Below, one piece after another: positions 12,353-30,951 of a stretch of 32,000 nucleotides of DNA. Within the stretch, counting starts at the first letter, position 1. Every line of letters starts with the position of its first letter. The notes under the pieces were generated by a model. It was given only the letters and a program-made list of their open reading frames with translations. It was not told the DNA's origin and did no database searches. Location of the stretch: contig NZ_CP021983.2 of NCBI RefSeq assembly GCF_002075285.3, forward strand, positions 1,260,001-1,292,000, given 5' to 3'. This DNA is from Halomicronema hongdechloris C2206 (GTDB lineage Bacteria > Cyanobacteriota > Cyanobacteriia > Phormidesmidales > Phormidesmidaceae). The position numbers and the translations under genes are program-made.

Positions 12353-13015
12353 ATGTCTAAGTCAAATAAGGTTCTTATTATTGGCGCTTCTGTAGCGCTT
12401 GGAGTTATTGCTGTTGTTGCCTTAGGTGTTGGTTGGATGCAGTTTGTCTCGTTTAGGAACGAGCAAGCGGAAAGAGCAGAAGCTGAGGAGCGAGAAGCCC
12501 GTCAGGAGGCGCTTAATGCTATATCAGCAGAGTGTCGAGATTTAAGGAGAATTGTGAATCAGACAGGAGATTTTATGCAAGAGTTTGAAGCTGAGATTCA
12601 AGTCTTTAGTGACAATGCTTCTCAAGTTGAAACACTTCAAGATATTAAGTCTGCTGCGACTGAATATACGGATGCAGTCGATACGGTAGTTGTCAGGCTG
12701 GATGGATTAACAAGTGAATTAGAGTCAAAAACTTATCAAGATGAGACTCTAAAAGGTTTTCAATCTGAATATACCAAAGTAGTTAAAGGTTTTAGAACTT
12801 CTTTGCTTGAGGCCGGTCAGGCAATGAATATCATTATCTCAACTCCATCAGAGGCAGAACTTCCAAGTAGGATAGATAAGTCTCAAGAGCAAACAATGGC
12901 AGCCGTATCTTCGATAGAGGAGCTTTCTAATACCGAAGACAAACTAATATCTGATGTGAACGCTTACTGCGAAGAAACTAATATAGAAAGAAACGAATTA
13001 CAAACTACTAATTAA
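12353..13015 (+). CDS. membrane-anchored coiled-coil protein, unknown function
   Basis: N-terminal TM helix (VLIIGASVALGVIAVVALGVGW) then a charged helical region. AT-rich codon usage unlike its surroundings. Confidence 0.6.
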   Translation: MSKSNKVLIIGASVALGVIAVVALGVGWMQFVSFRNEQAERAEAEEREARQEALNAISAECRDLRRIVNQTGDFMQEFEAEIQVFSDNASQVETLQDIKSAATEYTDAVDTVVVRLDGLTSELESKTYQDETLKGFQSEYTKVVKGFRTSLLEAGQAMNIIISTPSEAELPSRIDKSQEQTMAAVSSIEELSNTEDKLISDVNAYCEETNIERNELQTTN

Positions 13016-13440
13016 GCTACCAAGTGGAGGCCGCTGGAGTCCTGAGGATTGGCCTTGAGGTAATTAGAGGTAACCGCCAGAGATGAGTGTCCTAAGGTCT
13101 GTTTTACCAAGTCAAGATCAGTGGACTTGGCCAGCGCCTCCAGCTCCACCTGGCTCCTGAGAAAGGCGGCATATTCATCCACCGCGCCAGTATCACCCGG
13201 TGATAGGCCGATGTCTCCCTGATACTGGAGCTGCAGAAATGAGCGGTAGTGGCTAAGGTCACGGCCATAAGCCGCGCGCGTGTTGGCTGAGTTCTTTCCC
13301 TTGTAGTCCAGGAACTCAGCCACCAGCTCATCTTCACTCCACAGCTGAGAGCGGTCTATGGTTGCCATCGCAGTGGCGATCCTCATGGCCTCACTGAATA
13401 CCTCAGGATCGAAAACAGTTGTATTGGCTAAACTGGTCAT
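13012..13440 (-). pseudogene. internally deleted tyrosine recombinase remnant
   Basis: The N-terminal core-binding/SAM-like motif (NTRAAYGRDLSHYRSFL) is joined directly to the extreme C-terminal motif (LVKQTLGHSSLAVTSNYL, His plus catalytic Tyr). The segment that should hold the Arg/His-x-x-Arg catalytic residues is absent. Confidence 0.65.
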
Positions 13441-13575
13441 GGATTAAACCTCATATAGCAAGCCTAACCGAATTTAGAATGAGAATCGCTTACAAAGCCT
13501 ATAGTCTATGGAATGCTGTTCGAAATTCAACTGTGATTGCTATAGCCCACGTCAGGAGCCTCTCACCTTTCCCTG

Positions 13576-14388
13576 GTGTGGGCTAATATGTTGAGCGGAA
13601 CTATCGGCATAATCATTATCATGAAGTCCCCTAAACTTTTGATTGCCAGTTGCTCTCTATTGATGCTGGCTTTAACTTCTTGTGGTCTCGTCCCTTTTAG
13701 TAAAACCTCTTCATCTCAGGAAACACCAGCAGCTGTTGCAGAAGAGGCATCAAGTGATGAAGATCAGCCAATAGACGATTCCTTTGGAGAAGCTGTCAAT
13801 ACAGCTATGGCAGCCGCAGAAGCCGCGCAAACTGCGCAAACTGCTGATGAATGGGGCAATGTGGCCGAGCTGTGGACCAAAGCGATTGAGCTGATGAAGG
13901 CTGTTCCAGAGTCGAGCGAGAATTATCAGACGGCTCAGCAGAAGGTTGAAGAATATCAGAGAAACGTAGATTACGCAGCAGATGCTGCTTTCGCTGAGAA
14001 AAAAGTCTCTTCAAAATACAGTGAAATTCACCGCTTTTATGGCCAGCCGTTGATGAACGTTGCAGAGAACTTTGGGGCTTCACTTGCTCAGAGTGGTGAC
14101 CGCTTCACCAGTGAGGATGAAACAGCCGAGTTTTATGCAGAAAGTAGCAATGGTGAATCGATTAGTTATGTCGAAGTAGGTGTAAAGTCACTCGGCCCAT
14201 GTCAACCCAATGAAGCTATTGGACTTAGTAAGACGATAATGGCTCTCGGTGACGTACCTTCCACAAACAAAGTCCGGGAAACGGAATCATCAGGGTATGT
14301 AACTTATCGGGTAGAAGGTTTAACGGTCAAAACCTCATGTTTGTATGATGGCGACTGGTACACAATAAGTGTGTCAGCTGATGATTAA
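13576..14388 (+). CDS. lipoprotein, unknown function
   Basis: Probable start is 13621 (MKSPKLLIASCSLLMLALTSCG, a lipobox LTSC). AT-rich. Contains a W..A...W..AI.LM..VP..S..Y..AQ.KV..Y helical motif. Confidence 0.65.
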   Translation: MWANMLSGTIGIIIIMKSPKLLIASCSLLMLALTSCGLVPFSKTSSSQETPAAVAEEASSDEDQPIDDSFGEAVNTAMAAAEAAQTAQTADEWGNVAELWTKAIELMKAVPESSENYQTAQQKVEEYQRNVDYAADAAFAEKKVSSKYSEIHRFYGQPLMNVAENFGASLAQSGDRFTSEDETAEFYAESSNGESISYVEVGVKSLGPCQPNEAIGLSKTIMALGDVPSTNKVRETESSGYVTYRVEGLTVKTSCLYDGDWYTISVSADD

Positions 14389-14715
14389 GGCTTAACGGTT
14401 CTATGGGTGCGGTCATGACCAGCGGCAACCGTCTGCACTTTGGTGTCTTGCCGCCCCCTGGTAAGGCGGTGCTCTAGATAGCCCAGCCCTGTTCCTCTGA
14501 ACGCACGGCTAAAGCGCCTCCATCCAGCAAGACACCACTAAACAAAGCTGAGATAGATGCGTGGGAGAGGGCATACGGGCAATAGACGTTAGTTCATCTG
14601 GGTTGAGAGCTACATCTTGCCAATATGAAAGCCCTTATAAAGATTTTGTGAGCATCATGGCAACTTCTCTGGCTTCAATAAAGAGTTAGGTAGGCTTGTA
14701 AAAGCTTGTATTCTT

Positions 14716-15279
14716 TTGAAGTCTGTTCTAATGAAATCTTCGATTATCCCAGCCTCTCTCTTTTTGACTGTTGCCGTTATAGGATCTTCCGCGCCTGGGA
14801 TTGCCCAAGTTTGTTATGAGGATGGGAGTGGCAACGTAGTTGATTTAGGGGGGCTTTGCGATAGTTATGAAGACCGCAGCAGCTCTTCTAGCCAGGCACC
14901 TGAGCCTTCATCTAATAGCGCTCCATACGGGAATAGCTTTGTATATGATTCATCTCAAACACCTTTCCCGTCGTATCTGTTTGATAGCGATTTAGATAAC
15001 GAGGATGCTCATCAAACAGACCAGGTGAGCTATGGGAATAGCGCGCTATTTGTTTATGAAAATCGGTACATAGAAGATTTCTCGCAGTGGCCTTATACAG
15101 CCAGTGCTACCAATCATGCTGAATGGAGCTATATAGACTGTAGGACAGGCTGGAGAGGTCTTAAGTCTTCCCCTATGGCTGGTACATCACGGACGTTCTT
15201 TATCCCCCCAAGCCAGACAGAACGGCCTGATCTCTATCGCAATATTTGTAGAGAGGCAGGGCTATCCCCTCAGTTTTGA
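14716..15279 (+). CDS. secreted protein, unknown function
   Basis: Signal peptide (probable start 14731, MKSSIIPASLFLTVAVIGSSAPGIAQV). Ser-rich linker. Several Cys. No recognisable domain. Confidence 0.55.
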   Translation: MKSVLMKSSIIPASLFLTVAVIGSSAPGIAQVCYEDGSGNVVDLGGLCDSYEDRSSSSSQAPEPSSNSAPYGNSFVYDSSQTPFPSYLFDSDLDNEDAHQTDQVSYGNSALFVYENRYIEDFSQWPYTASATNHAEWSYIDCRTGWRGLKSSPMAGTSRTFFIPPSQTERPDLYRNICREAGLSPQF

Positions 15280-15612: not shown

Positions 15613-16311
15613 TTAAGACCAGAGCCCCTTAAACTGGGTGGGACTCATGGCGGTGTAGTGGGCCGTATGGCGGATGTTGGCGTGGCCCAGCCAGGCTTGG
15701 ATTGTGCGGGTATCGACGCCCTTATTCGCCAGGTAATAGCCGCAGCTATGGCGAAGCATGTGGGCATGGATGGGAAAACGGAATAGACCCTTGCCGGTGC
15801 GCTTGATCATGGCTGAAATCGCACTGCTGGCCAGGGGAGCCCCGGTGCTGCTGCAGAATATAAAAGGACTGTCGGCGTTTTCCCGTTCCAGCCGTCGCAG
15901 CCCCCTCAGCTCATCCCCCTCTAGGTAATGGGTGGAGTCGTGAGAGCCCTTGAGCCGACGGATCAAGATAGTGCCCTGCTGAAAATCCACATCAGCCCAG
16001 CGCAGATCGGCTATTTCTGAGACCCTGAGCCCGTGCCGATAGCCCATCAGCACAATCATGTGGTTGCGGTGACCGTTGCGGGCCGTGCGCTTAGCCGCCG
16101 TCAACAGCTGGTCTATTTCAGCCGGGGTCAGATACTCGCGCGTCCGCCCCGTCGCCTCGTGGCCTTTGTTAGGACTGGTGCCTGCCTTGGCCAACCGAGG
16201 GCGGACACCAGGGAAGGGCAGCACTGAGCCCTTTTGTTCAACTTTCGGTTCTTGGGCGTCTAGATTCATGGTGGCTCGATCTCCTGTCGCAGCGATACTG
16301 GGCGGGGCCAT
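15613..16311 (-). CDS. small tyrosine recombinase (FimB/FimE-like size, catalytic domain only)
   Basis: Catalytic signature present: GLRVSEIADLRWADV (Arg), HAHMLRHSCGYYL (His-x-x-Arg), WLGHANIRHTAHYT (His...Tyr). No separate arm-binding domain. Confidence 0.85.
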   Translation of the reverse strand: MAPPSIAATGDRATMNLDAQEPKVEQKGSVLPFPGVRPRLAKAGTSPNKGHEATGRTREYLTPAEIDQLLTAAKRTARNGHRNHMIVLMGYRHGLRVSEIADLRWADVDFQQGTILIRRLKGSHDSTHYLEGDELRGLRRLERENADSPFIFCSSTGAPLASSAISAMIKRTGKGLFRFPIHAHMLRHSCGYYLANKGVDTRTIQAWLGHANIRHTAHYTAMSPTQFKGLWS

Positions 16312-16421: not shown

Positions 16422-17468
16422 CTAGGGCTCAGCGCCGATAATCATGGGTTTGATCCAGATCAGCCTTCGCGACCTGCGACCGGCCCCGACCGGCTGATTT
16501 CGCCAATGCCCCCGTCGCCAATGCTCCCGCTTCCCACTTCCGCCACCCGCGCGCTTGCCCTCGCGGGGGGAACGAAGCTCCGATTTGGGCATGGATATAA
16601 CACGCGGCTGCCAATAGCGAGTCTGAGATCTCCTTGGTGGATTGCCTTTGGGCGTTGCTGGGGGATTCCCCTCCCCCGATATCAGTGAGGGCTGGTAGCT
16701 AGCGATTAGCAGTAGCTGCAACAGGATATTACGCACATGGTGCGTGAATTCGAGGTCTGCCCCGGTTAGCTCACTTGTGCCAAGGGTCGGAGGCCCTTGG
16801 ATGAGCGAGCCATCATTAGCGATGTCGAAGCCGCTAAACAGGGTACTGCAACGGGTATCCAGGGTGCTCCATTGCCAGTTGTACCGATAGTCGTTTTGGT
16901 GGGGGAGCCACGGGAAACGATAGGTGTTGCCCGCTAACTCATACTCACCCTGACTTAGTTCGGGATGTTCGCGATCCGATATATGCACCACTGCCCAGTC
17001 CACGCATCCTCCATCTGGGGCAATAAGGGCGTTGCTAGGCAGCAGAAATAGGGCTGTGCGAATAGGCGGTTCATTCAAGCCCGCCAGTAGTTTGTTGTCA
17101 GCGGCGAAATCAATGTCTGTATGCTCGCAGGCCCGTAACACTGCCGTGCGTACCAGATACAGAGGGGCATTCTGAGATAGCCACAAACCGCATCGATGCC
17201 CATGCAGGAGGGTGGCGCGATCTACTCCCTCCACCGCATTGATGAGTACTGCCATTGCAGTGCATAGCTCATCCCACCGCGCAAACCCTTTGGGAATCCG
17301 GTAGGGGCGACATTGCTTAATGGCGGCTGCCACTGTGCCGTATTTGCTAGTTAGCGCTTTTGCGGCTTGCGATCGCGAGTGCCATACATCCATCTTTGAC
17401 GCTCTCCGTGTATAGCTGGAGACCCCCGTGCGGGGGCAATAAAGGGGGTGGGAGAATCTCCCAGTCAA
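16422..17468 (-). CDS. orphan protein with Arg/Gly/Trp-rich basic C-terminal tail
   Basis: The probable start is MDVWHS at 17393 (GGAGAG about 9 nt upstream). C-terminus reads ...GKREHWRRGHWRNQPVGAGRRSRRLIWIKPMIIG. No family recognised. Confidence 0.6.
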   Translation of the reverse strand: MTGRFSHPLYCPRTGVSSYTRRASKMDVWHSRSQAAKALTSKYGTVAAAIKQCRPYRIPKGFARWDELCTAMAVLINAVEGVDRATLLHGHRCGLWLSQNAPLYLVRTAVLRACEHTDIDFAADNKLLAGLNEPPIRTALFLLPSNALIAPDGGCVDWAVVHISDREHPELSQGEYELAGNTYRFPWLPHQNDYRYNWQWSTLDTRCSTLFSGFDIANDGSLIQGPPTLGTSELTGADLEFTHHVRNILLQLLLIASYQPSLISGEGNPPATPKGNPPRRSQTRYWQPRVISMPKSELRSPREGKRAGGGSGKREHWRRGHWRNQPVGAGRRSRRLIWIKPMIIGAEP

Positions 17469-17627
17469 TCTCGCAAAGTCACTCCCCCCCGCAGGTCGGG
17501 GGCGGGCAAGTCATGAGCAAGCCTGGGGCAAGTCAGGTCCACTCCCCCCCGCAGGTCGGGGGCGGGGGCGCAGTACGGGCTCAACACAGGCTCACAAAAC
17601 ACACTCCCCCCGCAGGTCGGGGGCGGG
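17420..17627. repeat. CRISPR-like mini-array / GC-hairpin repeat array (3 conserved + 1 degenerate repeat)
   Basis: CACTCCCCCC(C)GCAGGTCGGGGGCGGG at 17480-17506, 17540-17566 and 17602-17627. Degenerate hairpin CCCCCGTGCGGGGG at 17422-17437. Period 58-62 bp. The intervening ~33-42 bp segments are mutually unrelated. No cas genes in the window. Confidence 0.5.
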
Positions 17628-17666
17628 GGTTAGGTCCGCGATATTGCGGATATTGCGGACCTAACC
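17628..17666 (-). terminator. strong hairpin (12-bp perfect stem, 15-nt loop) after the long operon
   Basis: GGTTAGGTCCGC-GATATTGCGGATATT-GCGGACCTAACC, 13 nt beyond the stop of the 81-aa gene. No clear U-tract, so the terminator role is inferred. Confidence 0.45.
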
Positions 17667-17678
17667 AAGAATGGTTAG

Positions 17679-17924
17679 TCACCACTCCATCAGGGTGCCG
17701 ATCACGTTGCCACCCCAGCCCTGCTGGCCAGGCGCGCGGCTGAGCAGCGTTATAACGCCGTTGCCATCAACGTGGGTATCGGTAATCTTCTGCCCGCCGA
17801 ACCAATAATCAGCGGCCATCTGCAACGCCTGCTTATAGCTAGGAGCTTCAAAAGTGCGTCGCCAGTCGATATCGTCCGGTAGGTTGTGGGTACGTCGCGC
17901 GAATGTGTAGCTAGTAGTTGTCAT
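17679..17924 (-). CDS. hypothetical protein (81 aa), last gene of the long operon
   Basis: ATG-initiated ORF 12 nt downstream of the GIY-YIG gene. No domain recognised. Confidence 0.5.
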   Translation of the reverse strand: MTTTSYTFARRTHNLPDDIDWRRTFEAPSYKQALQMAADYWFGGQKITDTHVDGNGVITLLSRAPGQQGWGGNVIGTLMEW

Positions 17925-17936
17925 TGTCTATGTCTA

Positions 17937-18251
17937 TTACTCCATTACGCCCCGGTGTTTACCCGGGTCAGCGGTCTGCAGCTTGCAGCACCAACAGAGC
18001 CGTGGTGCGTTCTTTTGTGCCTTCAGTGCTCGCTCAAAATCCCTCCCCATATTTGGCCAGGTGCAGACGACATCGAACTCAATACCGCGCTCATGAGCCA
18101 CAGCACAGAAGCGACTCCCTCGCCCCTTACGGTGTTGTTTAATCCGCTTGTCGATGTCAGTTGCGTAGCCGATATAATGCCTCGCTCGATTCGGTGTGGA
18201 AGGATCGAGCGGCTGCCTGAAGTGCAACAGGTAACAGCCCCTCATCATCAA
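17937..18251 (-). CDS. GIY-YIG domain nuclease-like protein
   Basis: CYLLHF...ARHYIGYATDIDKRIKQHRKGRGSRF...ERGIEFDVV...FERALK... fits the GIY...YIG...R...E layout. C-terminal CWCC. The start ATG overlaps the stop of the upstream micro-ORF. Confidence 0.65.
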   Translation of the reverse strand: MMMRGCYLLHFRQPLDPSTPNRARHYIGYATDIDKRIKQHRKGRGSRFCAVAHERGIEFDVVCTWPNMGRDFERALKAQKNAPRLCWCCKLQTADPGKHRGVME

Positions 18252-18424
18252 AATTCCCCTCCATCGGCACGGCCAAAGGCAAACGCCTGGTTGACGTGCT
18301 GCTGCCCTGGGGATGGCTGATCCAACTGCCAGAGCCGGTTAATGACGGCTATCCGATAGGCAGAGTCACTGTCGATGCGGCCCCACTGCAGTCGGTTGGC
18401 TTGGCGAATGTCGGTTAGGTGCAT
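18248..18424 (-). CDS. micro-ORF (58 aa), below ORF-track cutoff
   Basis: Hand translation: MHLTDIRQANRLQWGRIDSDSAYRIAVINRLWQLDQPSPGQQHVNQAFAFGRADGGEF*. Its TGA overlaps the ATG codons of the GIY-YIG gene. Confidence 0.45.
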   Translation of the reverse strand: MHLTDIRQANRLQWGRIDSDSAYRIAVINRLWQLDQPSPGQQHVNQAFAFGRADGGEF

Positions 18425-18440
18425 GAGTGGAGTCCTTTAG

Positions 18441-18617
18441 TCAAAACTGGGGGGCGCTCATCTGCAGCAAACTAGGCGCTTCAGCCTCGAAGTTTGAGAT
18501 CGCAGCTCCCCGCGTTGGGTGACCGTCTTCGCTGCAGAAGTCCTCGGTCTCCCAGTGCCAACCGTGGCCGGGAATCTCGTAGACCTGCAGCTGGTCTCTC
18601 AGTTCATCGATCGTCAT
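18441..18617 (-). CDS. micro-ORF (58 aa), below ORF-track cutoff
   Basis: Hand translation: MTIDELRDQLQVYEIPGHGWHWETEDFCSEDGHPTRGAAISNFEAEAPSLLQMSAPQF*. Its ATG overlaps the last 14 nt of the hydrolase gene. Confidence 0.45.
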   Translation of the reverse strand: MTIDELRDQLQVYEIPGHGWHWETEDFCSEDGHPTRGAAISNFEAEAPSLLQMSAPQF

Positions 18618-19812
18618 CTCTTATATGCTTCAGTAGCTGATCTACTCGTCTTCTCTGATCAGCGGGGACATTCATGGGGGCCCCGCCCAACTCCCTGCGC
18701 GATTCATTCAGGGCAGCAATGCGGGCGGCGACAAGCTGCTCAGGTGTGGGCGCGTGCGTTGGCAAGTGTTTGATCAGGCGACTCCCGGCATCCGGAGACT
18801 GATTCCAAATATCCAGGGCAGCTGCGATCGCAGGCTTAGACAGTGGCTGCCCCCATTTTTCTAGAGCCCGCTTCTGAAGGTCCCGTTCAGCCTGTTGTAG
18901 TCGCGCTAGTTGTTTCTGGTCGGCTTCCTCTGGAGTGCTGGCCCCGTGTTGATACGAAAAACTGCCCATGTTACGGGCACCATTGCCGGGGTCCCTGTGG
19001 CCGTAGTAGGCGCTTGTGGGGTCACAGTTGTCATCTCTGGTTCCCTCTGCTGCACCGATGGCACAGGTTTTCTCAGTGTTACTGAGTTCACTAAAGGGAG
19101 CTACCGGCTTGCTGCCGGTTAGCGCCCAGATCAGTGGTCCATTGGCAGGGTGATAATGCGCTCCGGATGCATCCCGCTCACGCCAGTCTAGATGGGGGCC
19201 AGTACCGTTCCCGGTCGCCCCGGTTTTGGCAATGATTTGCCCGCCACGGTGCCAACCGTCGGCGCAGCGGGAGAGGTGTAGAGCCTGGAATTTGCGGGCT
19301 GGCAGCGACTCGCTCTCGATATCAGCTACCAATCCTCCGCCATTGCCATCACGCCAGCATCGCACTCTGACCCGTTTGTCTTTATCCGCTGGAGCGTAGA
19401 TGGTGGTGCCGCTAGGGGTAGCGAGATCTACGCCACGGTGCTGATTGCTGCAGCCCTCACACGGTGCCTTGCGTGGCCCATAGCCACTGGTGACGGGATG
19501 CCCAGCAATCTTCTCCCCCGCCTGAATGGGCTCACCGAAATCAGGCGCGATCGCGTCACCCACCGCGTCAGCTGATTCGGTGACCCGGGTCACCATATTG
19601 AGCCCCTGGGCGATTCTGTCATTGAGGGAGGGGACCAGCACCGGAGCCAGCAGCAGGGATGATAGGCCTACACAGATAGCCGTGATAGACCAGTCCCTTC
19701 TTTGCCATTGATTAACCAAGCTCCACTGCAGATCGGGCGATAGTTCCTCAAAGGTTGGTCTAATTGGTCTAACGGGTGAGCCTTGCATCCTGCACCTCCC
19801 CGTCGTCGGCAT
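18604..19812 (-). CDS. bifunctional cell-wall hydrolase: M23 peptidase domain + lambda-lysozyme-like (lytic transglycosylase/GH104-like) domain
   Basis: N-terminal TM. M23 motifs HRGVDL (HxxxD) and GATGNGTGPHLDW. C-terminal IGAAEGT...GSFSYQ...LDIWNQSPDAG parallels phage lambda R (LAWSEGT...GAGRYQ...SNIWASLPGAG). Confidence 0.7.
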   Translation of the reverse strand: MPTTGRCRMQGSPVRPIRPTFEELSPDLQWSLVNQWQRRDWSITAICVGLSSLLLAPVLVPSLNDRIAQGLNMVTRVTESADAVGDAIAPDFGEPIQAGEKIAGHPVTSGYGPRKAPCEGCSNQHRGVDLATPSGTTIYAPADKDKRVRVRCWRDGNGGGLVADIESESLPARKFQALHLSRCADGWHRGGQIIAKTGATGNGTGPHLDWRERDASGAHYHPANGPLIWALTGSKPVAPFSELSNTEKTCAIGAAEGTRDDNCDPTSAYYGHRDPGNGARNMGSFSYQHGASTPEEADQKQLARLQQAERDLQKRALEKWGQPLSKPAIAAALDIWNQSPDAGSRLIKHLPTHAPTPEQLVAARIAALNESRRELGGAPMNVPADQRRRVDQLLKHIRDDDR

Positions 19813-20185
19813 AAATTACATCAATGCTCAGGCCTGATTCGGTGAGCCAACGGTAGGTGTCGTTGGCCAGCTGGCAGGTGGGAGGCCCTAACCATTGCAC
19901 GGCGATCTGTTCAGTCTCGCCGGTGAGGGCTCCCCGTAATTGCTCCTGGGTATTGCCAACGGTATTCTCGCTGAGCACTTGCTGGCAGGCCTCGAGTCGC
20001 GGATCATCCTCACCAGGGGGCTGTAGTTCCCGCCAACCCCGATCGAGTTTGGCGATCTGTGCCTTGGCCAGCCAGACAGGATTGATAAACCGTCCCCATC
20101 CTGGGGCGGCCATATCGGCTATCAGGATGAGGAGTGCTGCCGGCACAGATGAGATCGCAATGTTTCTGGCTTTGGCTCGGTTCAT
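19769..20185 (-). CDS. membrane-anchored hypothetical protein
   Basis: N-terminal TM (IAISSVPAALLILIADMAA). Its ATG overlaps the upstream stop (ATGA). Confidence 0.5.
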   Translation of the reverse strand: MNRAKARNIAISSVPAALLILIADMAAPGWGRFINPVWLAKAQIAKLDRGWRELQPPGEDDPRLEACQQVLSENTVGNTQEQLRGALTGETEQIAVQWLGPPTCQLANDTYRWLTESGLSIDVIYADDGEVQDARLTR

Positions 20186-20706
20186 TGGTCTACTGGGACG
20201 GCGCGGATCACTGGTCGGGATTCGACCGGGGTTCCCATTTCCTCAGTGCCCAGCATTACGTCATGAATTCCACCGGCTGCTGCCCGAGTAGGGGGAGCCA
20301 CAATCGCGGCCAGGTTACAGCCACTAACGACGGGGTTCCAAATATCGCCTCGACATTGCAGCACATCACCCCGCATTAGATTGAGTCCTCCAGATGCTCC
20401 GGCTAGGCCCAGCCAGACCGATGCACCGGTGACAGCCATGGTCTGTAGTGGGCGATGCCTGAGGCACGATAACCAGGCTCTGATAGCCATCAGAGAGCCC
20501 ATGTCGTCAGTGGCGGTATCAATAAAAAACAGCGGTTTCCGCTTATTTGTCGCATCAAAATACCCGCCATCTGCGATATTGCTTCTAGGAGCATTGCGAC
20601 GCCTTCCAATACCACCGCCACTCTGGTAGGGCGCTAGGCCACCACCGGTGCCGCCAACTGTGCTGAATTCTACGTCGATAACATCGTTATTTTTCGGACC
20701 AACCAT
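20182..20706 (-). CDS. hypothetical Gly-rich protein
   Basis: 174-aa ORF overlapping both neighbours. No domain recognised. Confidence 0.45.
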   Translation of the reverse strand: MVGPKNNDVIDVEFSTVGGTGGGLAPYQSGGGIGRRRNAPRSNIADGGYFDATNKRKPLFFIDTATDDMGSLMAIRAWLSCLRHRPLQTMAVTGASVWLGLAGASGGLNLMRGDVLQCRGDIWNPVVSGCNLAAIVAPPTRAAAGGIHDVMLGTEEMGTPVESRPVIRAVPVDQ

Positions 20707-22000
20707 TGTCTTGAGCCTCCAAGATATCGATCATGGTTTTGTATTGGTCTAGAGCGTCTTTGTAGGCCTGAGACCCCCCTTTCTTAACGCCCCATAGGGC
20801 GAGTAGGATTTGAGCCTGGTTGAGGCCCATCTCACGGCAGTCTCTGACCCGGTTCAGAATCTCAGGGGTAGAAAAAGGGGGGTCTGAACCGCCTGAACCG
20901 AACCGGTTCAGACCTGAACCCTGACTCGTGTATCCCTTGCCATATAGTCGGTTCAGCGTTTGAACCATATCTGAACCTCGGTTCAGATCCTGAACCGTCC
21001 CCCCCACTGTCACACTTGGAACCTTGTAGCTCAGTAGGGGCATCCACTCCCCTAGATCTGAGTGATAAAAGATGGCTTTTTTAGGGCTGAGAGATTGCTG
21101 AAATACCAAAGCATCCGGTTTCGTTTCGATGCTGCGATACGACTTCATCAAACTATGCAGATGCTCAGTCGATTCCGGTGTCTCAATCGCCAAAAGTCGA
21201 AGCGGGGCGCGGTTGCCACCAGTAAGGCCTAAATCAGCTACAAGTGGCGATTGGGTAATCATCCATAGGTGCCGGTCATCGGTCTCGCCGCTGCTCATTT
21301 CTACCTTGATGGTGGGGATGAGGAAATCCCGATACCACTTTGGCTGCATGGCATCTAATTTGATGCCCTCATCGATGACCAGTACAGTGGGTCTCGTCGG
21401 TTGCCGTCGCCATTCATGGATGAAGTCGGTCAGCTGCTGGGCGATAGTTTCGTCATTGGGCGCGTGGTCTTCCAGCATTACCGGCAAAATGCGATCACAT
21501 CCATCCCAGTAGCCCATCTCATTCTTGTGTGGCTTCGGCTGAATTACCCAGATCGTTGCCTCGGGGCGGATTTGCTTCACATAGCGCCAGGCCTGAGCAA
21601 TGACGACGCCTTTACCGGTGCGAGGATTGCCGGTGATCAGTGTCGGGTGTAGGTTATTGGCCAACACTCCGGCCACGTCGATATACCGTTTCGGTGGCTC
21701 CACACCGGGCGGTGCCTCGATGGTTTGCCCTGATGGTTGTGCCTGGCTATCGTCAGCAATGGTCACCGGCTTGGGCTGTTGGTCCATCAGCCACCAGCCC
21801 AGGAAACCTAAGGCAGTCAACCCTAGGGCTACCGCAGGAAGGCGGCCAGGGCGCTGATACTGCACCTCTACCGCCTGACCATTGGCAAAGGCGGCCAGGT
21901 CGTCAGCCGTCAGTGTGGATAGCTGTGGCGCTGTAGTAGCAATCCCTAGGGACGCCACCCCGCAGCCTGCAGCAGTTGCCAGGCGATAGATCGGCTTCAT
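20687..22000 (-). CDS. membrane-anchored P-loop NTPase with C-terminal HTH-like domain
   Basis: Two N-terminal hydrophobic segments. Walker A-like ITGNPRTGKGV. Walker B-like PTVLVIDEG. G/S-rich linker. C-terminal helical GLNQAQILLALWGVKKGGSQAYKDALDQY. Architecture, not demonstrable homology, resembles FtsK/TraB. Confidence 0.6.
   Translation of the reverse strand: MKPIYRLATAAGCGVASLGIATTAPQLSTLTADDLAAFANGQAVEVQYQRPGRLPAVALGLTALGFLGWWLMDQQPKPVTIADDSQAQPSGQTIEAPPGVEPPKRYIDVAGVLANNLHPTLITGNPRTGKGVVIAQAWRYVKQIRPEATIWVIQPKPHKNEMGYWDGCDRILPVMLEDHAPNDETIAQQLTDFIHEWRRQPTRPTVLVIDEGIKLDAMQPKWYRDFLIPTIKVEMSSGETDDRHLWMITQSPLVADLGLTGGNRAPLRLLAIETPESTEHLHSLMKSYRSIETKPDALVFQQSLSPKKAIFYHSDLGEWMPLLSYKVPSVTVGGTVQDLNRGSDMVQTLNRLYGKGYTSQGSGLNRFGSGGSDPPFSTPEILNRVRDCREMGLNQAQILLALWGVKKGGSQAYKDALDQYKTMIDILEAQDNGWSEK
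20884..20996. repeat. cluster of ~10 GGTTCAG/CTGAACC 7-mers inside the ATPase coding sequence
   Basis: ggTCTGAACCgcCTGAACCGAACCGGTTCAGacCTGAACC...cGGTTCAGcgtTTGAACCatatCTGAACCtcGGTTCAGatcCTGAACC. Includes the palindrome GAACCGGTTC. Confidence 0.8.
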
Positions 22001-22644
22001 GGTTGCTCTCTAACCTCCCATGCCTTGGATTCAGCCTCAGCACTCCGTAGGCGCTGACGGCTTTCGACTAGGTTCTGAATGGCTAGCTGGCTGAGGTTGG
22101 CTTCAGGCTCAACCGGGGCAACTGATTGTCGGGCCAGCTCGATGGCCTGAACCCGACTGACAGCGCCTAGCATCTGCTGCCAATCGCGATCCGCTTTGGC
22201 CCGCTCGATGGATGCGATCGCATCTCTAGCAAACTGGTCTAGGGCGCAATGAACCGATTGACTGAAGCAGGACGCTTCCGGGTCTGTGGCCTGGCGTTCG
22301 GCCTCTAGCAAATAGCGCCTAGCTTCCTGGCTGAGTAGCTGTTCCCTAAAAGCCTGCAGCTGCTCTGAGGATTGATAGATCAGCTCTTCAGTGCTGCTCT
22401 CAGCCCCGGCCACAATCGCATCTTTATCCAGCTCCATCGATGGTTCTGGCTGGTAGGTCTGGCCACCGGTGCCGGTGAATAGGGCAATACCTAGCCCCAG
22501 GACAGCTATGCTGCCGATGCCACCGGCAATTAAGACATCCTGACGCTGCCACCATTTAGGGGCTGGCTGGTCGATGCGGACAATCTCACGGCGAAACTCA
22601 GGCGGCACGGTGAATGGGGTTTCACGAGTGTCTTTCTCTTTCAT
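21997..22644 (-). CDS. single-pass membrane coiled-coil protein
   Basis: TM helix (VLIAGGIGSIAVLGLGIALF) followed by a helical charged region. ATGA overlap with the downstream ATPase gene. Confidence 0.5.
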   Translation of the reverse strand: MKEKDTRETPFTVPPEFRREIVRIDQPAPKWWQRQDVLIAGGIGSIAVLGLGIALFTGTGGQTYQPEPSMELDKDAIVAGAESSTEELIYQSSEQLQAFREQLLSQEARRYLLEAERQATDPEASCFSQSVHCALDQFARDAIASIERAKADRDWQQMLGAVSRVQAIELARQSVAPVEPEANLSQLAIQNLVESRQRLRSAEAESKAWEVREQP

Positions 22645-23959: not shown

Positions 23960-25030
23960 CTATAGGCGATAGATGCCTTTCAGCTCCATTTCTTGGGGCT
24001 CCTGGCAGAGGGCCACTCCCAGCTGGTGAGCCACTGAGGCCACCCCTGGCAGCAGTGCGCCACCGCCAGCAATCACCTTCACTGGGCATTTCTGGAAAAT
24101 ATGAGCCCCTTCGACCTTGGCCGCGTGAATGCGGCCCTTGAGCCAAGGCTCGAAACACTGCAGATAGGCATCCCTGAAGCTGTCGCCAGAGTGCCCCCAC
24201 AGCTCAAACGTGCGAGCCTCAACCCCTAGGCGGATTGCTTCAGGACTAGGGCGAGTGCCGGTAGTGTTGGCCAGAGTGGCAATGGATTCGAATAGCTCTG
24301 CCACCCCTCCATTGAGGCTGAGGCTGTCGATCATGGCCCGGCTGCTGGGGTCAAAGCCGCTGATAGTGCTGTTCTGATAGCCCAAATCCAACACGGCAAC
24401 GGGGCGATCGGTTGCGATCGCAACGGCAGTCCCCAGGGACTCAGGCACCGGCTTAACACCAGTCACGTTGATGGTGATGCGGCGGCCAGCATTGACGGCG
24501 ACATCGTGCAGTCCCACCAGAGGCTTTAGCTCACCTGCCATCTGTGGAGTAGGCACAGACGCGGTCAAGGTGACGGTAAAAAGCTCCACATCGTCAGGGG
24601 CGATTTGAGCCAGCATGGCTAGGGCTAGCGGGCCATACCACTTAGGCTTGAGGCCATGGGCTAGCGATTCCAGCGTGGTGGCCGACTCGAGATTCTCGCC
24701 GGCGGCAAACTCACCCGCGTAGGGACTGTTCGTGATTTTTACCCGTAGCTGAGTAGCAGAACCAGCGCCAGTTAGGGGGATTTGGGGTGCTACCAGCGAT
24801 CGCAGCCGGTAGAATTGCCCGCCATCGAACACCTTCGCAAACCCGGCCCCGACCGCGATCGCAACCTTGTTCGCATCCGCCCCAATTGGGGCGGTATCGG
24901 CCGCTTTCGGCAGGACACTAGGGGGAGACAGTTGGGGGTCTGAAGTGGCTGTAAGCATTGTCGTTTCTGGGATAGGAGTGCATCTGGCCGCGAAACTTCT
25001 TTTTCCGGTATCGACCGAAAAGGTTCGCAA
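23960..25030 (-). CDS. actin-like (ASKHA fold) ParM/Alp-type ATPase
   Basis: Phosphate-2-like VAVLDLGYQNSTISG and adenosine-motif-like KVIAGGGALLPG. N-terminal FSVDTGKRS or AIAVGAGFAKV as phosphate-1 candidates. The start is uncertain (TTG 25030 or ATG 24958). Confidence 0.6.
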   Translation of the reverse strand: MRTFSVDTGKRSFAARCTPIPETTMLTATSDPQLSPPSVLPKAADTAPIGADANKVAIAVGAGFAKVFDGGQFYRLRSLVAPQIPLTGAGSATQLRVKITNSPYAGEFAAGENLESATTLESLAHGLKPKWYGPLALAMLAQIAPDDVELFTVTLTASVPTPQMAGELKPLVGLHDVAVNAGRRITINVTGVKPVPESLGTAVAIATDRPVAVLDLGYQNSTISGFDPSSRAMIDSLSLNGGVAELFESIATLANTTGTRPSPEAIRLGVEARTFELWGHSGDSFRDAYLQCFEPWLKGRIHAAKVEGAHIFQKCPVKVIAGGGALLPGVASVAHQLGVALCQEPQEMELKGIYRL

Positions 25031-26143: not shown

Positions 26144-26204
26144 TTTTACCACAATGTCGGGAAGCCTTTAATAGATAGCATCTCAGCGCATTTTCCTGGT
26201 TTTG

Positions 26205-26256
26205 TGTACTAAAAATAGAACATTTATAGAACATTTTTTGTACTAAAAATAGAACA
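26205..26256. repeat. AT-rich direct repeats TGTACTAAAAATAGAACA x2 (34-bp period) plus extra ATAGAACA
   Basis: Exact 18-mers at 26205-26222 and 26239-26256. ATAGAACA at 26226-26233. This is the most AT-rich patch of the GC-rich part of the element. Confidence 0.6.
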
Positions 26257-26761: not shown

Positions 26762-29167
26762 TTGCGACCTGATAACCGCCACTGGACGGATGGGCAGGAA
26801 TCGCCAAAATATTGCAGCCCGCGCGGCGATATTGACCGGCAGGCACTGTGGGTGCCACCCGGTGCAACGCTTAGCGACCTGGCCGCCGTCACCGAGGGGT
26901 GGAAGGACGCGGCGATCGCCACCATCCGCACCGGGCGGCCCGTTGGTGCAATTGCGGGGGTTTCCCATATCGCCAAAACGCTGCCTGCAGGTGTTGGGGT
27001 AACAACCGTTTTTGACAGCGATGGCCTGACCAACGCCAACGTCATGCAGGCCCTGATCAGGGGGGGGCTGCACCTGGGCGGCAAAATTACGCTCATCCCT
27101 CGGGATATTGGGGAGAAATGTGGGGCCACTGAATTTTTTGGCAGTGGCCGGACACAGTCTGATTTTGACCAATTGTTGGCGGGCGCGCGAAACCCCCGAG
27201 CGTTTTTCCTGCAATGGTTGGGGTATCTCAGCGATGCTCCCCTGCCCAAAAACTGCGACACGCTGACGGCCCTGTATCAGCGGCTGTGGCGGATCGCCTG
27301 GCATCTCGACAGAGACTGCCATGAACTGCGGAGTCGGGTTGAGGCGTTCATCCAGGCCCATTCTCGGGCCAATGGCGTCAAATTGAATAAACCCGATGTG
27401 CGAGCCATTCGCAGTGCGGCCACAAAACCACTCTGGGAGCGGGAATCGCAACGGCAACTGGCAGAGCGCAGGGCGGCGGCGACAACTCAAACAGATTCAT
27501 CCTGGACTGTCAAACGCTGTTTCGATGATGCGATCACCCTCACCCCCGACGGGGTCCGACTGCCTCCAACGGGCAAATTGGCGGCCCTGATGGAGCAGAG
27601 CTGGTCGAAACATTTGAAATGGCGGCTCGATTTTTCCAGTTTTTATGCATACGGCAGGACGACACCTGGGCTGTGGGAGCGGGTCAGCGATCGCGAGGTG
27701 AAGGAACTCGTGCAGCGGGAGCTAGATGCTGCTGGAACTGATGGGGAATATGGTTTGACCGTGGTTGATAATACTGTGGCCCTGTTGAGCCAACGGGTCT
27801 CGGTGCGGCAGCTGCCACAGGCCCACGGCTACATTCCATTCCGCAATGGGGTGTTGCGGGTTTCGGACAGGACCCTGCTGGAGCACAGTCCTGACTACGG
27901 GTTCACCTGGCAATTGCCCTATGATTACATCCCCGGGGCAGAGTGTGGCCCGGTTGTGGACTGGCTGGGGTGGGCGGTGAACGGAGACAAAACAGTTGTC
28001 CAACTCATTCGCGCCTGTCTCAAAGCGATGATTTTGGGACGTACAGATTTTCAGCGTTATCTCGAAATCGTTGGGCCTGGTGGAACAGGGAAGGGCGTGT
28101 TAATTCGTCTAATTCAGGCCCTGCTGGGGAGGTCGAACACCGTCAGTACCTCTCTATCACGCATCGCCAACAGTAGGTTTGAGACAGGGCGATTCATGGG
28201 GAAACGATTGATTTTCATCCCTGATGCGGACTACAACCCCACGGCCGTCGACACGCTCAAACAATTGACCGGTGAGGATTTTATTCCGTGGGAGCGCAAA
28301 AACGAGAACTCTGATTATTGCGATGGGTTCACCCTGGAGGGGTGGGTGATGGTGGCGACCAACAGGGAAATTGTTGCCAGCGATCATACGAATGCACTAT
28401 TCCGGAGGCGAATTCCAATCTATTTCAACCACGTGGTTCCTGATGGCGAGCGGCGGGATCTAATTAGTTTTTGCCCCGATGGCAGTCTACGAGGCGAGTT
28501 TGCCGACCTCCTGCCGGGGGTGTTCAACTGGGTGCTCGACATGCCGGATAAATTGATGGAACGGTATATCAAAAACCCGCGAGAGTACGTGCGCTCGATG
28601 GGTGAGTTCCAGGCCGAGACATTACTCGAAACCAACAGTGTGGCGGCATGGGTGGACGAAAATGTTGTTTATCAACCGGGCGAATTTGCAAAAATCGGTG
28701 GCAAAAACAACCCCGCAGACAGCTGTCTATACCCGAACTATGTGGCATGGTGCGAGGCTACGGGCAGCAAGACCGTGGGTCTCAGGACATTTGTGAAAGA
28801 CTTCAAAAATTTGTTTTGTAATGAATTGGGGTTGGATGTCTCGAAACGGCGCGATCGGAACCGAGGCTCTGGGTTTGACAATATTCGCCTGCGGATTTGT
28901 GGGGGCGATGGGGAGCCCCGAGAGGATGAGCCCTGCACGGTTGAGCGGGCATTGGGCGGCTCAACCCAAAACGATACCAACGGTGATGGCGATGGCATTT
29001 CATTGTCGAAACAGGATTTAAAACAACTTCTAAACCTCTATTCTGATGACCCACCAGTTTTTGAATCCGAGCTGCAGCGATTGTCAGGGCTGCAACGGGA
29101 TCATCTCTACCAGGAGTTGCCTGAACTCAGGCCCATGGCGGGGGAGGTGAATGGGCATGTTAGGTGA
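26762..29167 (+). CDS. replicative primase-helicase: Toprim-like (DUF3854-type) domain + D5_N-like + P4/D5-type SF3 helicase
   Basis: QLRPDN...KYCSPRG, then VTEGWKDAAI...GVTTVFDSDG (Toprim-like). Then YIPFRNGVL..., Walker A GPGGTGKGV, Walker B RLIFIPDAD, motif C VMVATN. Confidence 0.8.
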   Translation: MRPDNRHWTDGQESPKYCSPRGDIDRQALWVPPGATLSDLAAVTEGWKDAAIATIRTGRPVGAIAGVSHIAKTLPAGVGVTTVFDSDGLTNANVMQALIRGGLHLGGKITLIPRDIGEKCGATEFFGSGRTQSDFDQLLAGARNPRAFFLQWLGYLSDAPLPKNCDTLTALYQRLWRIAWHLDRDCHELRSRVEAFIQAHSRANGVKLNKPDVRAIRSAATKPLWERESQRQLAERRAAATTQTDSSWTVKRCFDDAITLTPDGVRLPPTGKLAALMEQSWSKHLKWRLDFSSFYAYGRTTPGLWERVSDREVKELVQRELDAAGTDGEYGLTVVDNTVALLSQRVSVRQLPQAHGYIPFRNGVLRVSDRTLLEHSPDYGFTWQLPYDYIPGAECGPVVDWLGWAVNGDKTVVQLIRACLKAMILGRTDFQRYLEIVGPGGTGKGVLIRLIQALLGRSNTVSTSLSRIANSRFETGRFMGKRLIFIPDADYNPTAVDTLKQLTGEDFIPWERKNENSDYCDGFTLEGWVMVATNREIVASDHTNALFRRRIPIYFNHVVPDGERRDLISFCPDGSLRGEFADLLPGVFNWVLDMPDKLMERYIKNPREYVRSMGEFQAETLLETNSVAAWVDENVVYQPGEFAKIGGKNNPADSCLYPNYVAWCEATGSKTVGLRTFVKDFKNLFCNELGLDVSKRRDRNRGSGFDNIRLRICGGDGEPREDEPCTVERALGGSTQNDTNGDGDGISLSKQDLKQLLNLYSDDPPVFESELQRLSGLQRDHLYQELPELRPMAGEVNGHVR

Positions 29168-29707: not shown

Positions 29708-29814
29708 CTGTGTAGGGGTGTGTAGGGGTCCTGTGTAGGGGGCAATCTCAACCCCTACACGCTGAAACCCTTGCTGTGTGGGGCTTGTGTAGGGCGTGTA
29801 GGGGTGTGTAGGGG
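29708..29814 (-). repeat. GTGTAGG(GG) repeat array (6 good + 1 degenerate copy, plus one CCCCTACAC in the opposite sense); candidate arm-type sites
   Basis: GTGTAGGGG at 29710, 29720, 29733, 29796 and 29806. GTGTAGGG at 29787. CCCCTACAC at 29752. This is the inverse complement of the motif at 9667-9795, and the GGTTTCAGC neighbour motif is also shared in inverse orientation. Confidence 0.7.
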
Positions 29815-29853: not shown

Positions 29854-30951
29854 TTAGAACAGGTTCGGTGTTTCTGGATGACTTTTGATGAGGCCGGCAT
29901 AGTTTTCGTAGAGTGTTTTGACGTTATGGCCCGTGATTGCGGCAACCTCTACCGGGTTCATGCCAGACGCTAGGGCATGGCTCACAAACGTGTGGCGGGT
30001 GTGATAGGCCGACCGATACTCTATGCCAGCGGCGGCCAGCACCTTAGCCCATCCCCGAGCACTGAAATTCTTGGCGTCCATCGGTCCCCCCTCTGGAGCC
30101 GGGAACACCAGATCGTCGCCCTCGACGCCTGCAGACATTCGCGATCGCAACATCTCAGCCAGGGAAGCACTCAGCTTCACTTCCCTGGGTTTCTTGGTTT
30201 TGGTGTCCTTAAACTCTCCATGGCTGTAGGCTTCACCAAGCCAGACCACGGTGCAATCTTCATTCAGGTGGCGCCACCGGAGCCCATTTACCTCCCCAGT
30301 TCGGCATCCCGTCGCAAACTTGAACTGGACATAGTCGGCATAGTGGCAATAGTAGGGAGAGTCCCTGAACCCTTGAATGATTCGTTTGACCTCATCCCTG
30401 CTGAATGCTCTAGGCTTCTGCTTTGGCGACTTGCGGATTGTCAATTCTGACCAGGGGTTAGCCGTCACCAATTCCTGCTCTATGCCCCAATCCCATGCAG
30501 CCTTGAGCAGGCCCAACCGCTCAAACACTGTGGACGGCTCTAGGTTTTCCATAAGCCATTGCAGGAAGTCGTCAGCAGTGTCTTCGCTCCCCACAGCACC
30601 GTCGCCAAAATATTCTCGAAGCCAGGTCACCAGGCCGTAGTACTTCTCTAAGGTGCGAGCCTGGACCCGCTTCGCTTTCCACTCAATGAACCGCTCGAAC
30701 AAGTCAACAGCGGTTATGATCTGCGGTTGCTGGCTGGGGTCTGTGCGGTATTTCCCCAACGTTGCGTCAAAGTTATTGGAGAGCATATCCAGCCGAATTT
30801 CTGAGGCCCGGCGCTTTGCAACCTCAACGTTGATCGGGTCATACCGTAACCCAAGGCTGAGGTAGTAGCGCTTCCCATGGTGGCGCCACCGGAGCTGTAT
30901 CCATCCCTCTTTGTTCGCGATCGCAACTTCGCCTTTAGGTGTCCTGGGCAT
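29854..30951 (-). CDS. int: tyrosine integrase with N-terminal Arm-type DNA-binding domain
   Basis: N-terminus KGEVAIANKEGWIQLRWRHHGKRYYLSLGL (Arm-binding, DUF3596-like). Catalytic ATGCRTGEVNGLRWRHL (Arg), AYHTRHTF (His-x-x-Arg), ITGHNVKTLYENY (His...Tyr). Lies 144 bp from the tRNA 3' end. Confidence 0.9.
   Translation of the reverse strand: MPRTPKGEVAIANKEGWIQLRWRHHGKRYYLSLGLRYDPINVEVAKRRASEIRLDMLSNNFDATLGKYRTDPSQQPQIITAVDLFERFIEWKAKRVQARTLEKYYGLVTWLREYFGDGAVGSEDTADDFLQWLMENLEPSTVFERLGLLKAAWDWGIEQELVTANPWSELTIRKSPKQKPRAFSRDEVKRIIQGFRDSPYYCHYADYVQFKFATGCRTGEVNGLRWRHLNEDCTVVWLGEAYSHGEFKDTKTKKPREVKLSASLAEMLRSRMSAGVEGDDLVFPAPEGGPMDAKNFSARGWAKVLAAAGIEYRSAYHTRHTFVSHALASGMNPVEVAAITGHNVKTLYENYAGLIKSHPETPNLF

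Follow-up and report, generated by a model that had tools for sequence, protein, structure and literature searches.

Recognition Sites of DNA Translocases

In Streptomyces, the C-terminus of the TraB translocase binds short repeats in the clt locus (PMC4447253, PMC3583192, PMC3429521). This locus is a cluster of short (5–9 bp) repeats at the translocase gene (PMC3583192, PMC4447253) and, in plasmid pWTY27, it overlaps the 3′ end of traA, including 16 bp of that gene (PMC4447253, PMC3583192, PMC3429521). Here, a comparable cluster is described in a 32-kb window of the cyanobacterium Halomicronema hongdechloris C2206 (the whole stretch of DNA that was analysed; all coordinates are positions within it). 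The cluster lies inside the gene for a 437-amino-acid P-loop ATPase, predicted to be membrane-anchored and belonging to an unnamed family, and this gene is carried by a 21.6-kb element integrated at tRNA-Val(GAC). It is proposed that the array is a recognition array of the type of clt or of the FtsK-orienting polar sequences (KOPS). What would be new is the protein family, the phylum, and the embedding of the array in the codons of a protein linker.

The likeness to the Streptomyces systems, namely TraB/TraA with clt and its TraB recognition sequences (TRS) in pSVH1, pJV1, pIJ101, pWTY27, and the integrative and conjugative elements of actinomycetes (AICEs), has several aspects. A single membrane-anchored ATPase combines a motor with a C-terminal recognition domain, which for the window protein is a candidate. 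The repeats, of 5–9 bp, are clustered, direct as well as inverted, different from element to element, and situated at the 3′ end of the translocase gene, which they may overlap. In addition, the hosts are in both cases filamentous, multicellular bacteria, in which the systems are carried by plasmids or by elements integrated at tRNA genes, alongside small membrane proteins (PMC4447253, PMC3583192, PMC3429521). Nevertheless, the window ATPase falls outside FtsK_SpoIIIE by sequence, its motor is much smaller (~230 amino acids), and its C-terminal domain has no detectable winged helix. Moreover, the window array lies wholly inside coding sequence, sets the peptide of the linker, makes heavy use of both orientations, and belongs to a cyanobacterial host.

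A similar comparison can be made with FtsK, whose gamma domain reads KOPS, and with SpoIIIE and its recognition sequences (SRS). These systems also combine an 8-bp word with a small C-terminal domain that is placed on a linker of a membrane-anchored, hexameric pump for double-stranded DNA, an arrangement that is predicted for the window protein. However, KOPS and SRS are dispersed and orientation-biased throughout the chromosome and guide direction, whereas the window words form one local cluster with two orientations. The gamma domain is, furthermore, a winged helix, and none was detected in the C-terminal domain encoded in the window.

A Dense Array of One DNA Word

The ATPase gene occupies 20687–22000 on the minus strand, and the translation in the initial annotation of this DNA agrees with that open reading frame (ORF). 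Within the gene, 20851–20996 (146 bp) contains nine exact copies of the 7-mer GGTTCAG or its complement CTGAACC. If these are counted as the 6-mer GGTTCR, there are 11 sites, distributed over both strands, with plus-strand starts at 20851, 20905, 20950, and 20980 and minus-strand starts (YGAACC) at 20885, 20894, 20899, 20915, 20961, 20972, and 20991. Eight exact copies are found in 20884–20996, at 20884 (−), 20893 (−), 20905 (+), 20914 (−), 20950 (+), 20971 (−), 20980 (+), and 20990 (−). For this span, about ten copies of one 7-mer had been annotated, which is a fair count, as it also contains a site with one mismatch (TTGAACC, 20960–20966) and a CGAACC half-site (20899–20904), and the ninth exact copy (20851–20857) is just beyond it. 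The palindrome GAACCGGTTC is located within the array at 20900–20909, and the gaps between neighbouring sites are mostly of 8–11 bp.

The annotation had also considered a chance origin negligible, and the counts agree. The 7-mer occurs 13 times in the whole window versus 4.4 expected, a number reached in 0 of 100 shuffles, and the four copies elsewhere in the window are at chance level. Ten or more copies of any 6-mer were observed in just 0.12% of 8319 background windows of 180 nt taken from 60+ related loci.

The DNA Word rather than the Peptide Is Conserved

The array constitutes the codons of residues ~330–377 (20870–21010, minus strand), the linker to which it had been assigned initially, and this segment is disordered in the AlphaFold2 model, with a predicted local distance difference test score (pLDDT) below 50 over amino acids 330–373. 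One copy lies further, within the first helix of the C-terminal domain (ILNRV, 20851). When the same peptide was encoded with synonymous codons drawn from the gene's own usage (5000 trials), GGTTCAG appeared 0.5 times on average and 4 times at most, versus the nine copies observed. The same null was rejected for four homologues, that is, for five of five genes. Codon choice points in the same direction: all four Gly-Ser dipeptides are written GGT-TCA, with codons whose usage elsewhere is 0.17 and 0.11 (0.17 × 0.11 for the pair), and all four Leu-Asn dipeptides are written CTG-AAC with C as the next base.

In the window, the word encodes GS, VQ, (R)F, and LN(R), while in relatives it encodes SEP, GSN, LNP, EP, GT, GS/VQ, and ETIS; these are unrelated peptides obtained from all three frames and both orientations. 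Throughout eight arrays, the commonest spacing between sites is 11 bp and many spacings are not divisible by 3. The linker itself is hypervariable in both length and sequence. The suggestion that the DNA motif dictates the peptide, rather than the reverse, is thus borne out by recoding and codon choice. Peptide repeats kept with other codons, which would have spoken for a protein-level constraint, are the opposite of what homologues display, since they retain the word while the linker peptides and frames differ, and in one relative the array is intergenic. These comparisons establish a constraint at the level of DNA and give good support to the view that the array is a DNA-level feature and not a protein repeat. 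Because it is the DNA word and not the encoded peptide that is conserved among relatives, the most likely role of the array is that of a site recognised by a DNA-handling protein, which is probably the ATPase.

The Word Follows the C-Terminal Domain

The comparison set comprised 69 related loci, in which the C-terminal domain of the ATPase has three subtypes: T1, with the loop WGxKKGGxxxY; T2, with the loop LGYKGxKYxEG; and a third group with longer C-terminal domains. The three-helix domain encoded at 20690–20869 (minus strand) in the window is of subtype T1 according to alignment and model, with the loop WGVKKGGSQAY, and is the candidate reader of the array. All seven other T1 loci examined carry an array of the GGTTC type with 9–17 sites in both orientations. 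Forward and reverse sites number 8+/5− in L036 (P0017), 9+/4− in both L062 (P0011) and L068 (P0023), 11+/2− in L066 (P0105), 7+/4− in L067 (P0147), 4+/6− in L063 (P0009), and 9+/8− in L022, where the array is GGTTC[CG] and the loop is ATKGGG. In L058, which has an altered T1 loop (VKAGGS), a variant array of [AG]TTTCA is found. In the 87 GGTTC sites that seven T1 loci provide, the bases following this searched core are A in 95% (position +5) and a purine in 87% (position +6), which gives the word (C/G)GGTTCA(G/A); the family consensus from these sites is V-GGTTCA-R. A profile of the 62-amino-acid C-terminal domain, used to search for further T1 domains, returned two fragments.

The motif follows the C-terminal subtype; it does not follow the core of the ATPase, the genes alongside, or the replication protein. 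For instance, P0105 and P0147 have cores 28% and 26% identical to that of the window protein and C-terminal domains 51% and 45% identical to its own, and their motif is the same. P0002, P0004, and P0008 are 54–59% identical to the window protein in the core, yet they have a T2 domain and the words GTTAC, CGAACG(AC), and GGAAGT. Replication proteins also differ under one word, as the window encodes a P4-family primase and L036, L062, and L068 encode DUF3854 proteins without similarity to it (E ≥ 0.6). Partition systems likewise differ among elements with the GGTTCA word, L067 encoding ParAB, for example.

The four module genes that neighbour the ATPase gene in the window all group with T2-type elements, as does the core of the ATPase, and the T1 part of the ATPase gene is only its last ~320 bp, comprising the array and the C-terminal domain. 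By this comparison, the window gene is a natural domain swap, and the array and the domain form a ~320-bp cassette that is exchanged between elements. Besides the C-terminal domain, no protein family specific to T1 was found in the loci compared. As expected for a site of the clt/TRS kind, the word covaries with the recognition domain in the window and in seven of the seven other T1 loci, at core identities of 26–59%, although this is a correlation; and there is an element-specific cluster of short repeats at the translocase gene (the 11 GGTTCR sites in 146 bp). That the motif is conserved along with the subtype of the domain, that the cassette is exchanged, and that there is no dependence on replication or partition genes is established by these comparisons.

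The word also varies with the loop between helix 2 and helix 3 of the C-terminal domain. VKKGG[ST] is found with GGTTCA, ATKGGG with GGTTC[CG], VKAGGS with [AG]TTTCA, and KGRKF with GGAAGT, the last of these in two backgrounds with cores 51% identical. In this regard, the core of L014 is 90% identical to those of L003 and L012, which are without a GGAAGT array, and 51% identical to that of L039, with which L014 has the KGRKF loop in common. The GGAAGT arrays of T2 loci (L039, L001, L041, L014, and L023) have a layout of five forward and then three reverse copies. Together, the correlations of motif and loop point to the C-terminal domain, and to its helix 2–helix 3 loop, as the candidate reader. 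That the motif tracks the C-terminal subtype is what would be predicted if the array is read by the protein that its own gene encodes. The central idea of the initial annotation, that of a DNA-dictated cis site linked to its reader, is well supported by these comparisons.

Two relatives have an array elsewhere. In L063, the same 7-mers as in the window (GGTTCAG/CTGAACC) are in an intergenic spacer of 146 nt, 2.7 kb upstream of the region that encodes the C-terminal domain. L061 encodes a distant homologue (585 amino acids) with almost no C-terminal linker, and nine copies of GTTCCA/TGGAAC (5251–5565) fill a low-complexity N-terminal segment of its ATPase gene, ahead of the membrane helix.

A separate observation concerns the linkers of L049, L012, and L003, whose cores are ~90% identical. 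At homologous positions some 150 nt past a conserved W..P..Y motif, forward and reverse copies have changed together: L049 has GGAAC/GTTCC, L012 has GAAAC/GTTTC, and L003 has CGAAC/GTTCG as well as GTAAC/GTTAC. Such changes suggest that the word switches quickly, and in concert, between closely related elements. A universal GAAC core was considered for the family, as it is enriched in T1 and some T2 linkers; it is not claimed, because the GGAAGT, GAAAC, and GTTAC classes lack it.

The ATPase and Its Family

The N-terminal part of the protein (amino acids 1–73; 21782–22000, minus strand) is a putative membrane anchor, with hydrophobic helices predicted at amino acids 3–23 and 53–73 that would insert into the membrane. 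It is followed by an ATPase core with a predicted RecA/ASCE fold (amino acids ~100–330; 21011–21703, minus strand), which was assigned from invariant residues, the AlphaFold2 model, and Foldseek. The core has a Walker A motif, GNPRTGKG (about 21608–31), and a Walker B motif, VLVIDE (about 21368–85); GK of the former, DE of the latter, Q250, and R264 are invariant in the whole family. The AlphaFold2 model, built with 19 homologues, consists of two N-terminal hydrophobic helices, the core (pLDDT >85), the disordered linker, and a three-helix C-terminal domain. Anchor, motor, and small C-terminal domain are arranged as in FtsK, SpoIIIE, and TraB, a likeness of architecture only. In a Foldseek search with the whole model, the top match in the Protein Data Bank (PDB) was the FtsK motor 6t8g_A (E 1.4e-5), followed by other FtsK structures (2ius), TcpA, VirB4, and STIV2 B204.

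A profile search indicates that the family comprises at least 426 representative clusters at 50% identity. Leptolyngbya, Nodosilinea, Nostoc, Tolypothrix, and similar genera carry its members, on plasmids as well as on integrated elements, and tblastn located homologues on 22 plasmids, every one from filamentous cyanobacteria. Scans of the ATPase and its small neighbours against Pfam, PHROGs, and NCBIfam assigned no family, and the ATPase gene had no match by DNA similarity in the PLSDB plasmids. Searches of the PDB with phmmer and with profiles (whole protein, family alignment, and C-terminal alignment) gave nothing meaningful. A phage origin of the ATPase was rejected, as no homologue was found in 50,697 phage genomes (INPHARED) or in IMG/VR.

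A Possible Mechanism

In the mechanism proposed here, the array would be a cis-acting locus for recognition of double-stranded DNA (dsDNA), made of ~11 copies of a 7–8-bp word that are mostly about one helical turn apart. It would be written into the disordered linker as the sole segment of the ATPase that tolerates almost any peptide. The likely reader is the three-helix C-terminal domain, which is encoded right downstream and would be tethered by the linker to a membrane-anchored ATPase of the hexameric type. Binding of DNA by this domain would allow the clustered words to bring together, at the membrane, several of the C-terminal domains that an ATPase oligomer has. The motor might thereby be loaded on the element's own DNA, so that the element rather than the chromosome would be translocated as dsDNA, with cell-to-cell transfer or spread along the filament as the outcome. 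A hydrolase with M23/lysozyme similarity and small membrane proteins encoded nearby could open the path through the wall. This reading, in which the FtsK-like translocase of the element recognises a clt/TRS-like array and site and reader form an exchangeable cassette, is judged to be about as probable as all other explanations together.

With the site located in the codons of the linker, it cannot be separated from its reader, which would explain their joint movement as a cassette. Sites within the gene of their own reader are known elsewhere: hexamer clusters of pac lie in pacA of phage P1, P22 and SPP1 have pac in the gene for the small terminase, and parS lies in spo0J of Bacillus subtilis. 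In these cases, too, the location of the site in the coding sequence of the reader keeps both linked and, in P1 pac, the hexamer clusters flank a central segment, resembling the forward-then-reverse layout of the T2 arrays. By contrast, pac and parS are in structured coding regions, have few copies, and belong to other protein families, while the window site fills a disordered linker.

A broader proposal is that filamentous cyanobacteria have a previously unrecognised single-ATPase dsDNA mover resembling that of Streptomyces, with a swappable cassette of ~320 bp, an address label in the linker codons, and a reader of novel fold; this is advanced tentatively, as somewhat less probable than its alternatives. 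Should the array indeed be read in this way, a function open to testing, together with a defined cis site, could be assigned to an unnamed family that has at least 426 clusters (50% identity). A TraB/clt-like route would also be a new mechanism for cyanobacteria, in whose filamentous members the movement of plasmids and islands is poorly understood. The covariation of motif and loop (VKKGG with GGTTCA, KGRKF with GGAAGT, and others) would provide a code for the specificity of a small DNA-recognition domain whose fold appears to be new, and the system would offer parts for cyanobacterial genetics, namely mobilisable cassettes. There would, in addition, be an apparently clear case of a natural overlapping code, with a protein-binding array setting the residues of a disordered linker in three frames and both orientations. 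If this is right, the low complexity of a linker can be the shadow of a DNA signal.

Several observations weigh against a translocase that reads the array in its own gene. Part of them concern the protein. The window protein was not placed in FtsK_SpoIIIE (PF01580) at the sequence level; a distant family member, P0170, matches PF01580 with an E value of 0.004, which falls short of the cut-off. KaiC, Rho, and FlaH score like FtsK in Foldseek, and whole-chain template modelling (TM) scores are ~0.3. Because of these similar scores, the ATPase is labelled FtsK-like in architecture and fold class only, on the strength of a weak fold match of the model. The comparison with FtsK that had been drawn initially thus holds, weakly, for the fold, and is not supported for family membership, as neither Pfam nor NCBIfam provides it. 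The C-terminal domain, when modelled alone (pLDDT 85), has three helices, a loop of seven residues between helices 2 and 3, and no beta wing. Its net charge is about zero. With this domain alone, Foldseek gave no significant match in the PDB (best E 2.8), and a profile search of the PDB gave no match to helix–turn–helix (HTH), winged HTH, or FtsK-gamma domains. The label of an HTH-like or winged-helix (gamma) domain, given in the initial annotation, was dropped because Foldseek provided no significant match, and the domain is described as a three-helix bundle without a wing.

Other observations concern the loci. The sample behind the correlations of word and loop is small. Since the array and the C-terminal domain are adjacent, part of their co-inheritance could be simple linkage, and they are separated in L063 only, still within one module. 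The T1 contigs are short (4.5–11 kb), which leaves room for a distant T1-specific reader. Arrays are not universal in the family: large Nodosilinea groups have three weak copies (p ~0.4), and no clear array was found in the BL0902 plasmid, in Nostoc pCC7120alpha, or in the subtype with a long C-terminus. Among the ORFs of the element that were scanned, which do not cover all the small ones, there is no relaxase, VirB4, or other transfer marker. Finally, a search of the literature for a cyanobacterial TraB-like system, or for transfer of such elements, found nothing.

Alternative Explanations

The array could instead be the site of another protein, that is, an operator of the module genes, a centromere for the actin-like or ParA-like protein, or iterons for replication by the P4-family primase, with its place in the ATPase gene being incidental. 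This is unlikely, although it is the alternative that survives best. The element does encode an actin-like (ALP/ParM-like) protein, a ParA-like protein, and the primase; the array of L063 precedes the operon, within an intergenic spacer, where an operator or centromere would typically be located; and the C-terminal domain has no demonstrable DNA-binding character. Against it, the same motif stands beside unrelated replication proteins and different partition systems (ParAB in L067), no other family is T1-specific while the window neighbours are T2-type, and the motif goes with the C-terminal domain across cores 26–59% identical. Moreover, loci of the P0017 type have no co-oriented downstream gene to regulate. 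Were the array to prove an operator or centromere, it would still be a well-defined and portable cis element.

Iterons of the phage P4 type deserve separate mention. The alpha protein of P4 binds iterons of the TGTTCACC type, and the type I iterons in ori and crr of this phage are octamers, direct and inverted, with a GTTCA core that resembles GGTTCA. The window element encodes a P4-family primase (TIGR01613) and is, to this extent, similar. However, the elements with GGTTCA arrays in L036, L062, and L068 have no primase of the P4 type, and the array follows the C-terminal domain of the ATPase. Origin iterons of this type are consequently disfavoured, as they should occur together with a P4-family primase and the same motif is carried by elements with DUF3854 proteins. 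A better candidate for the origin is provided by AT-rich repeats located at 26200–26256, upstream of the primase gene. These are two direct repeats of 23 nt (TTTTGTGTACTAAAAATAGAACA), 34 nt apart and ~500 nt upstream of that gene, and are a candidate origin or operator. Consensus scans for an internal promoter or terminator remained at chance level, and these candidates were discarded.

Improbable, but based on the same logic of recognition with another destination, is a pac-like packaging signal for an ATPase of the FtsK/HerA type in an unrecognised virus-like or vesicle-borne particle. The Foldseek match to the packaging NTPase B204 of STIV2 (TMt 0.51), a weak Terminase_6C match near L062, and the precedent of pac hexamer clusters within the gene of the recognition subunit, as in pacA of P1, are compatible with it. 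The 21.6-kb element, though, yielded no genes for capsid, portal, or tail, and the family, which is missing from INPHARED phages and IMG/VR, resides on large cyanobacterial plasmids and has N-terminal membrane helices in its protein.

Slightly less probable still is a role of the array through nucleic-acid secondary structure, as a DNA cruciform or hairpin or as mRNA structure that makes ribosomes pause or determines how stable the downstream message is. In effect, the array region folds much better than shuffled sequences (−32.3 kcal/mol, z = −4.65), the convergent T2 layout (five forward, three reverse) could pair, and forward and reverse copies co-change between L049 (GGAAC) and L012 (GAAAC). 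Nevertheless, the ratios and order of orientations vary for one motif (6+/4−, 8+/5−, 9+/4−, 11+/2−, 4+/6−) with no conserved pairing scheme, many copies are direct repeats that are unable to pair with each other, and GGTTCAR is kept across very divergent elements, even at positions that a hairpin does not constrain.

The least probable explanation, a functionless by-product of selection for a flexible linker rich in G, S, N, Q, and P or of slippage and template-switch mutation, could appeal to a linker that is disordered and hypervariable in sequence and length, to the frequency of cryptic repeats in low-complexity linkers, and to the many family members without a clear array, but is strongly disfavoured by the sequence comparisons: the recoding null fails in five of five genes, the motif occurs in three frames and both orientations, the same 6–7-mer is found in eight loci with unalignable linker peptides and cores down to 26% identical, an identical array exists in the non-coding DNA of L063, and few arrays of such density exist elsewhere in ~0.8 Mb of sequence from related loci.

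The Host Element and Its Gene Module

The element is bordered by att direct repeats of 55 nt that are 98% identical. The left repeat (9487–9541) is a copy of the 3′ part of tRNA-Val, and Rfam detects a partial tRNA at 9497–9556; the right one (31094–31148) is within tRNA-Val(GAC) at 31093–31170 (minus strand). Next to the tRNA, a family scan identified a tyrosine integrase (29854–30951, minus strand). A tRNA gene, a tyrosine integrase, and att repeats 21.6 kb apart constitute integration of the AICE type. Family scans also identified the P4-family primase at 26762–29167, the actin-like protein at 23960–25030, and the ParA-like protein at 11451–11996. A second, short tyrosine recombinase of the element (15613–16311, minus strand) resembles FimB/E, with best matches to DNA invertases of the FimB/FimE type and to Xer recombinases; it could act in multimer resolution or as an inversion switch.

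The genes around the ATPase form a module with a conserved order: a 215-amino-acid gene, the ATPase, genes of ~175 and ~137 amino acids, and an M23/lysozyme hydrolase of ~400 amino acids. In the window, all on the minus strand, the 215-amino-acid upstream gene is at 21997–22644 (by synteny); the downstream gene of 174 amino acids, which overlaps the stop codon of the ATPase gene, is at 20182–20706 (ORF and synteny); the 138-amino-acid gene is at 19769–20185 (ORF and comparison); and the cell-wall hydrolase of 402 amino acids is at 18604–19812. The hydrolase has an M23 peptidase domain according to a family scan, and its homologue in L038 matches Phage_lysozyme. A plasmid of Leptolyngbya has the module as well, and so do elements integrated in related cyanobacteria.

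Other repeats were observed in the element. The 7-mer CCTACAC is clustered at both ends, with nine plus-strand copies at 9669–9792, just inward of the left att repeat, as two units of 56 nt, and with six minus-strand copies and one plus-strand copy just inward of the integrase end (29710–29812); the window total is 20 versus 2.6 expected. These clusters are probably arm-type sites for the integrase or an excisionase, inverted between the ends. An intergenic region, 17480–17627, contains three copies of a GC-rich, internally palindromic repeat of 27 nt (CACTCCCCCCCGCAGGTCGGGGGCGGG) at intervals of 60–61 nt, which could be a mini-array resembling clustered regularly interspaced short palindromic repeats (CRISPR) or a hairpin repeat of the repetitive extragenic palindromic (REP) or terminator kind. 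The block at 12000–15000 has a GC content of 0.41–0.49 versus ~0.57 elsewhere and ORFs without family matches, and is probably acquired cargo.

Related elements have further features of their own. Intergenic iterons, 7–11 in number and ~11–12 bp long, with the core ACGACT(T), are found in L007 (13366–13710) and also in L012, L024, L026, L029, and L055. They are mostly direct (with inverse orientation in L026 and L029), lie just downstream of the lysozyme-like gene, and were found in only 6 of ~30 loci of this kind, namely in a subset of Nodosilinea/Phormidium elements whose ATPase linkers have no clear array. That they are displaced arrays is disfavoured by this limited occurrence and by the direct repeats, and a variable replication or partition module is more likely. 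Lastly, beside the homologous element in L039, the region 16806–21305 contains TIR, NACHT, and TPR genes that look like defence or signalling functions, and defence systems may be among the variable cargo that these elements carry.

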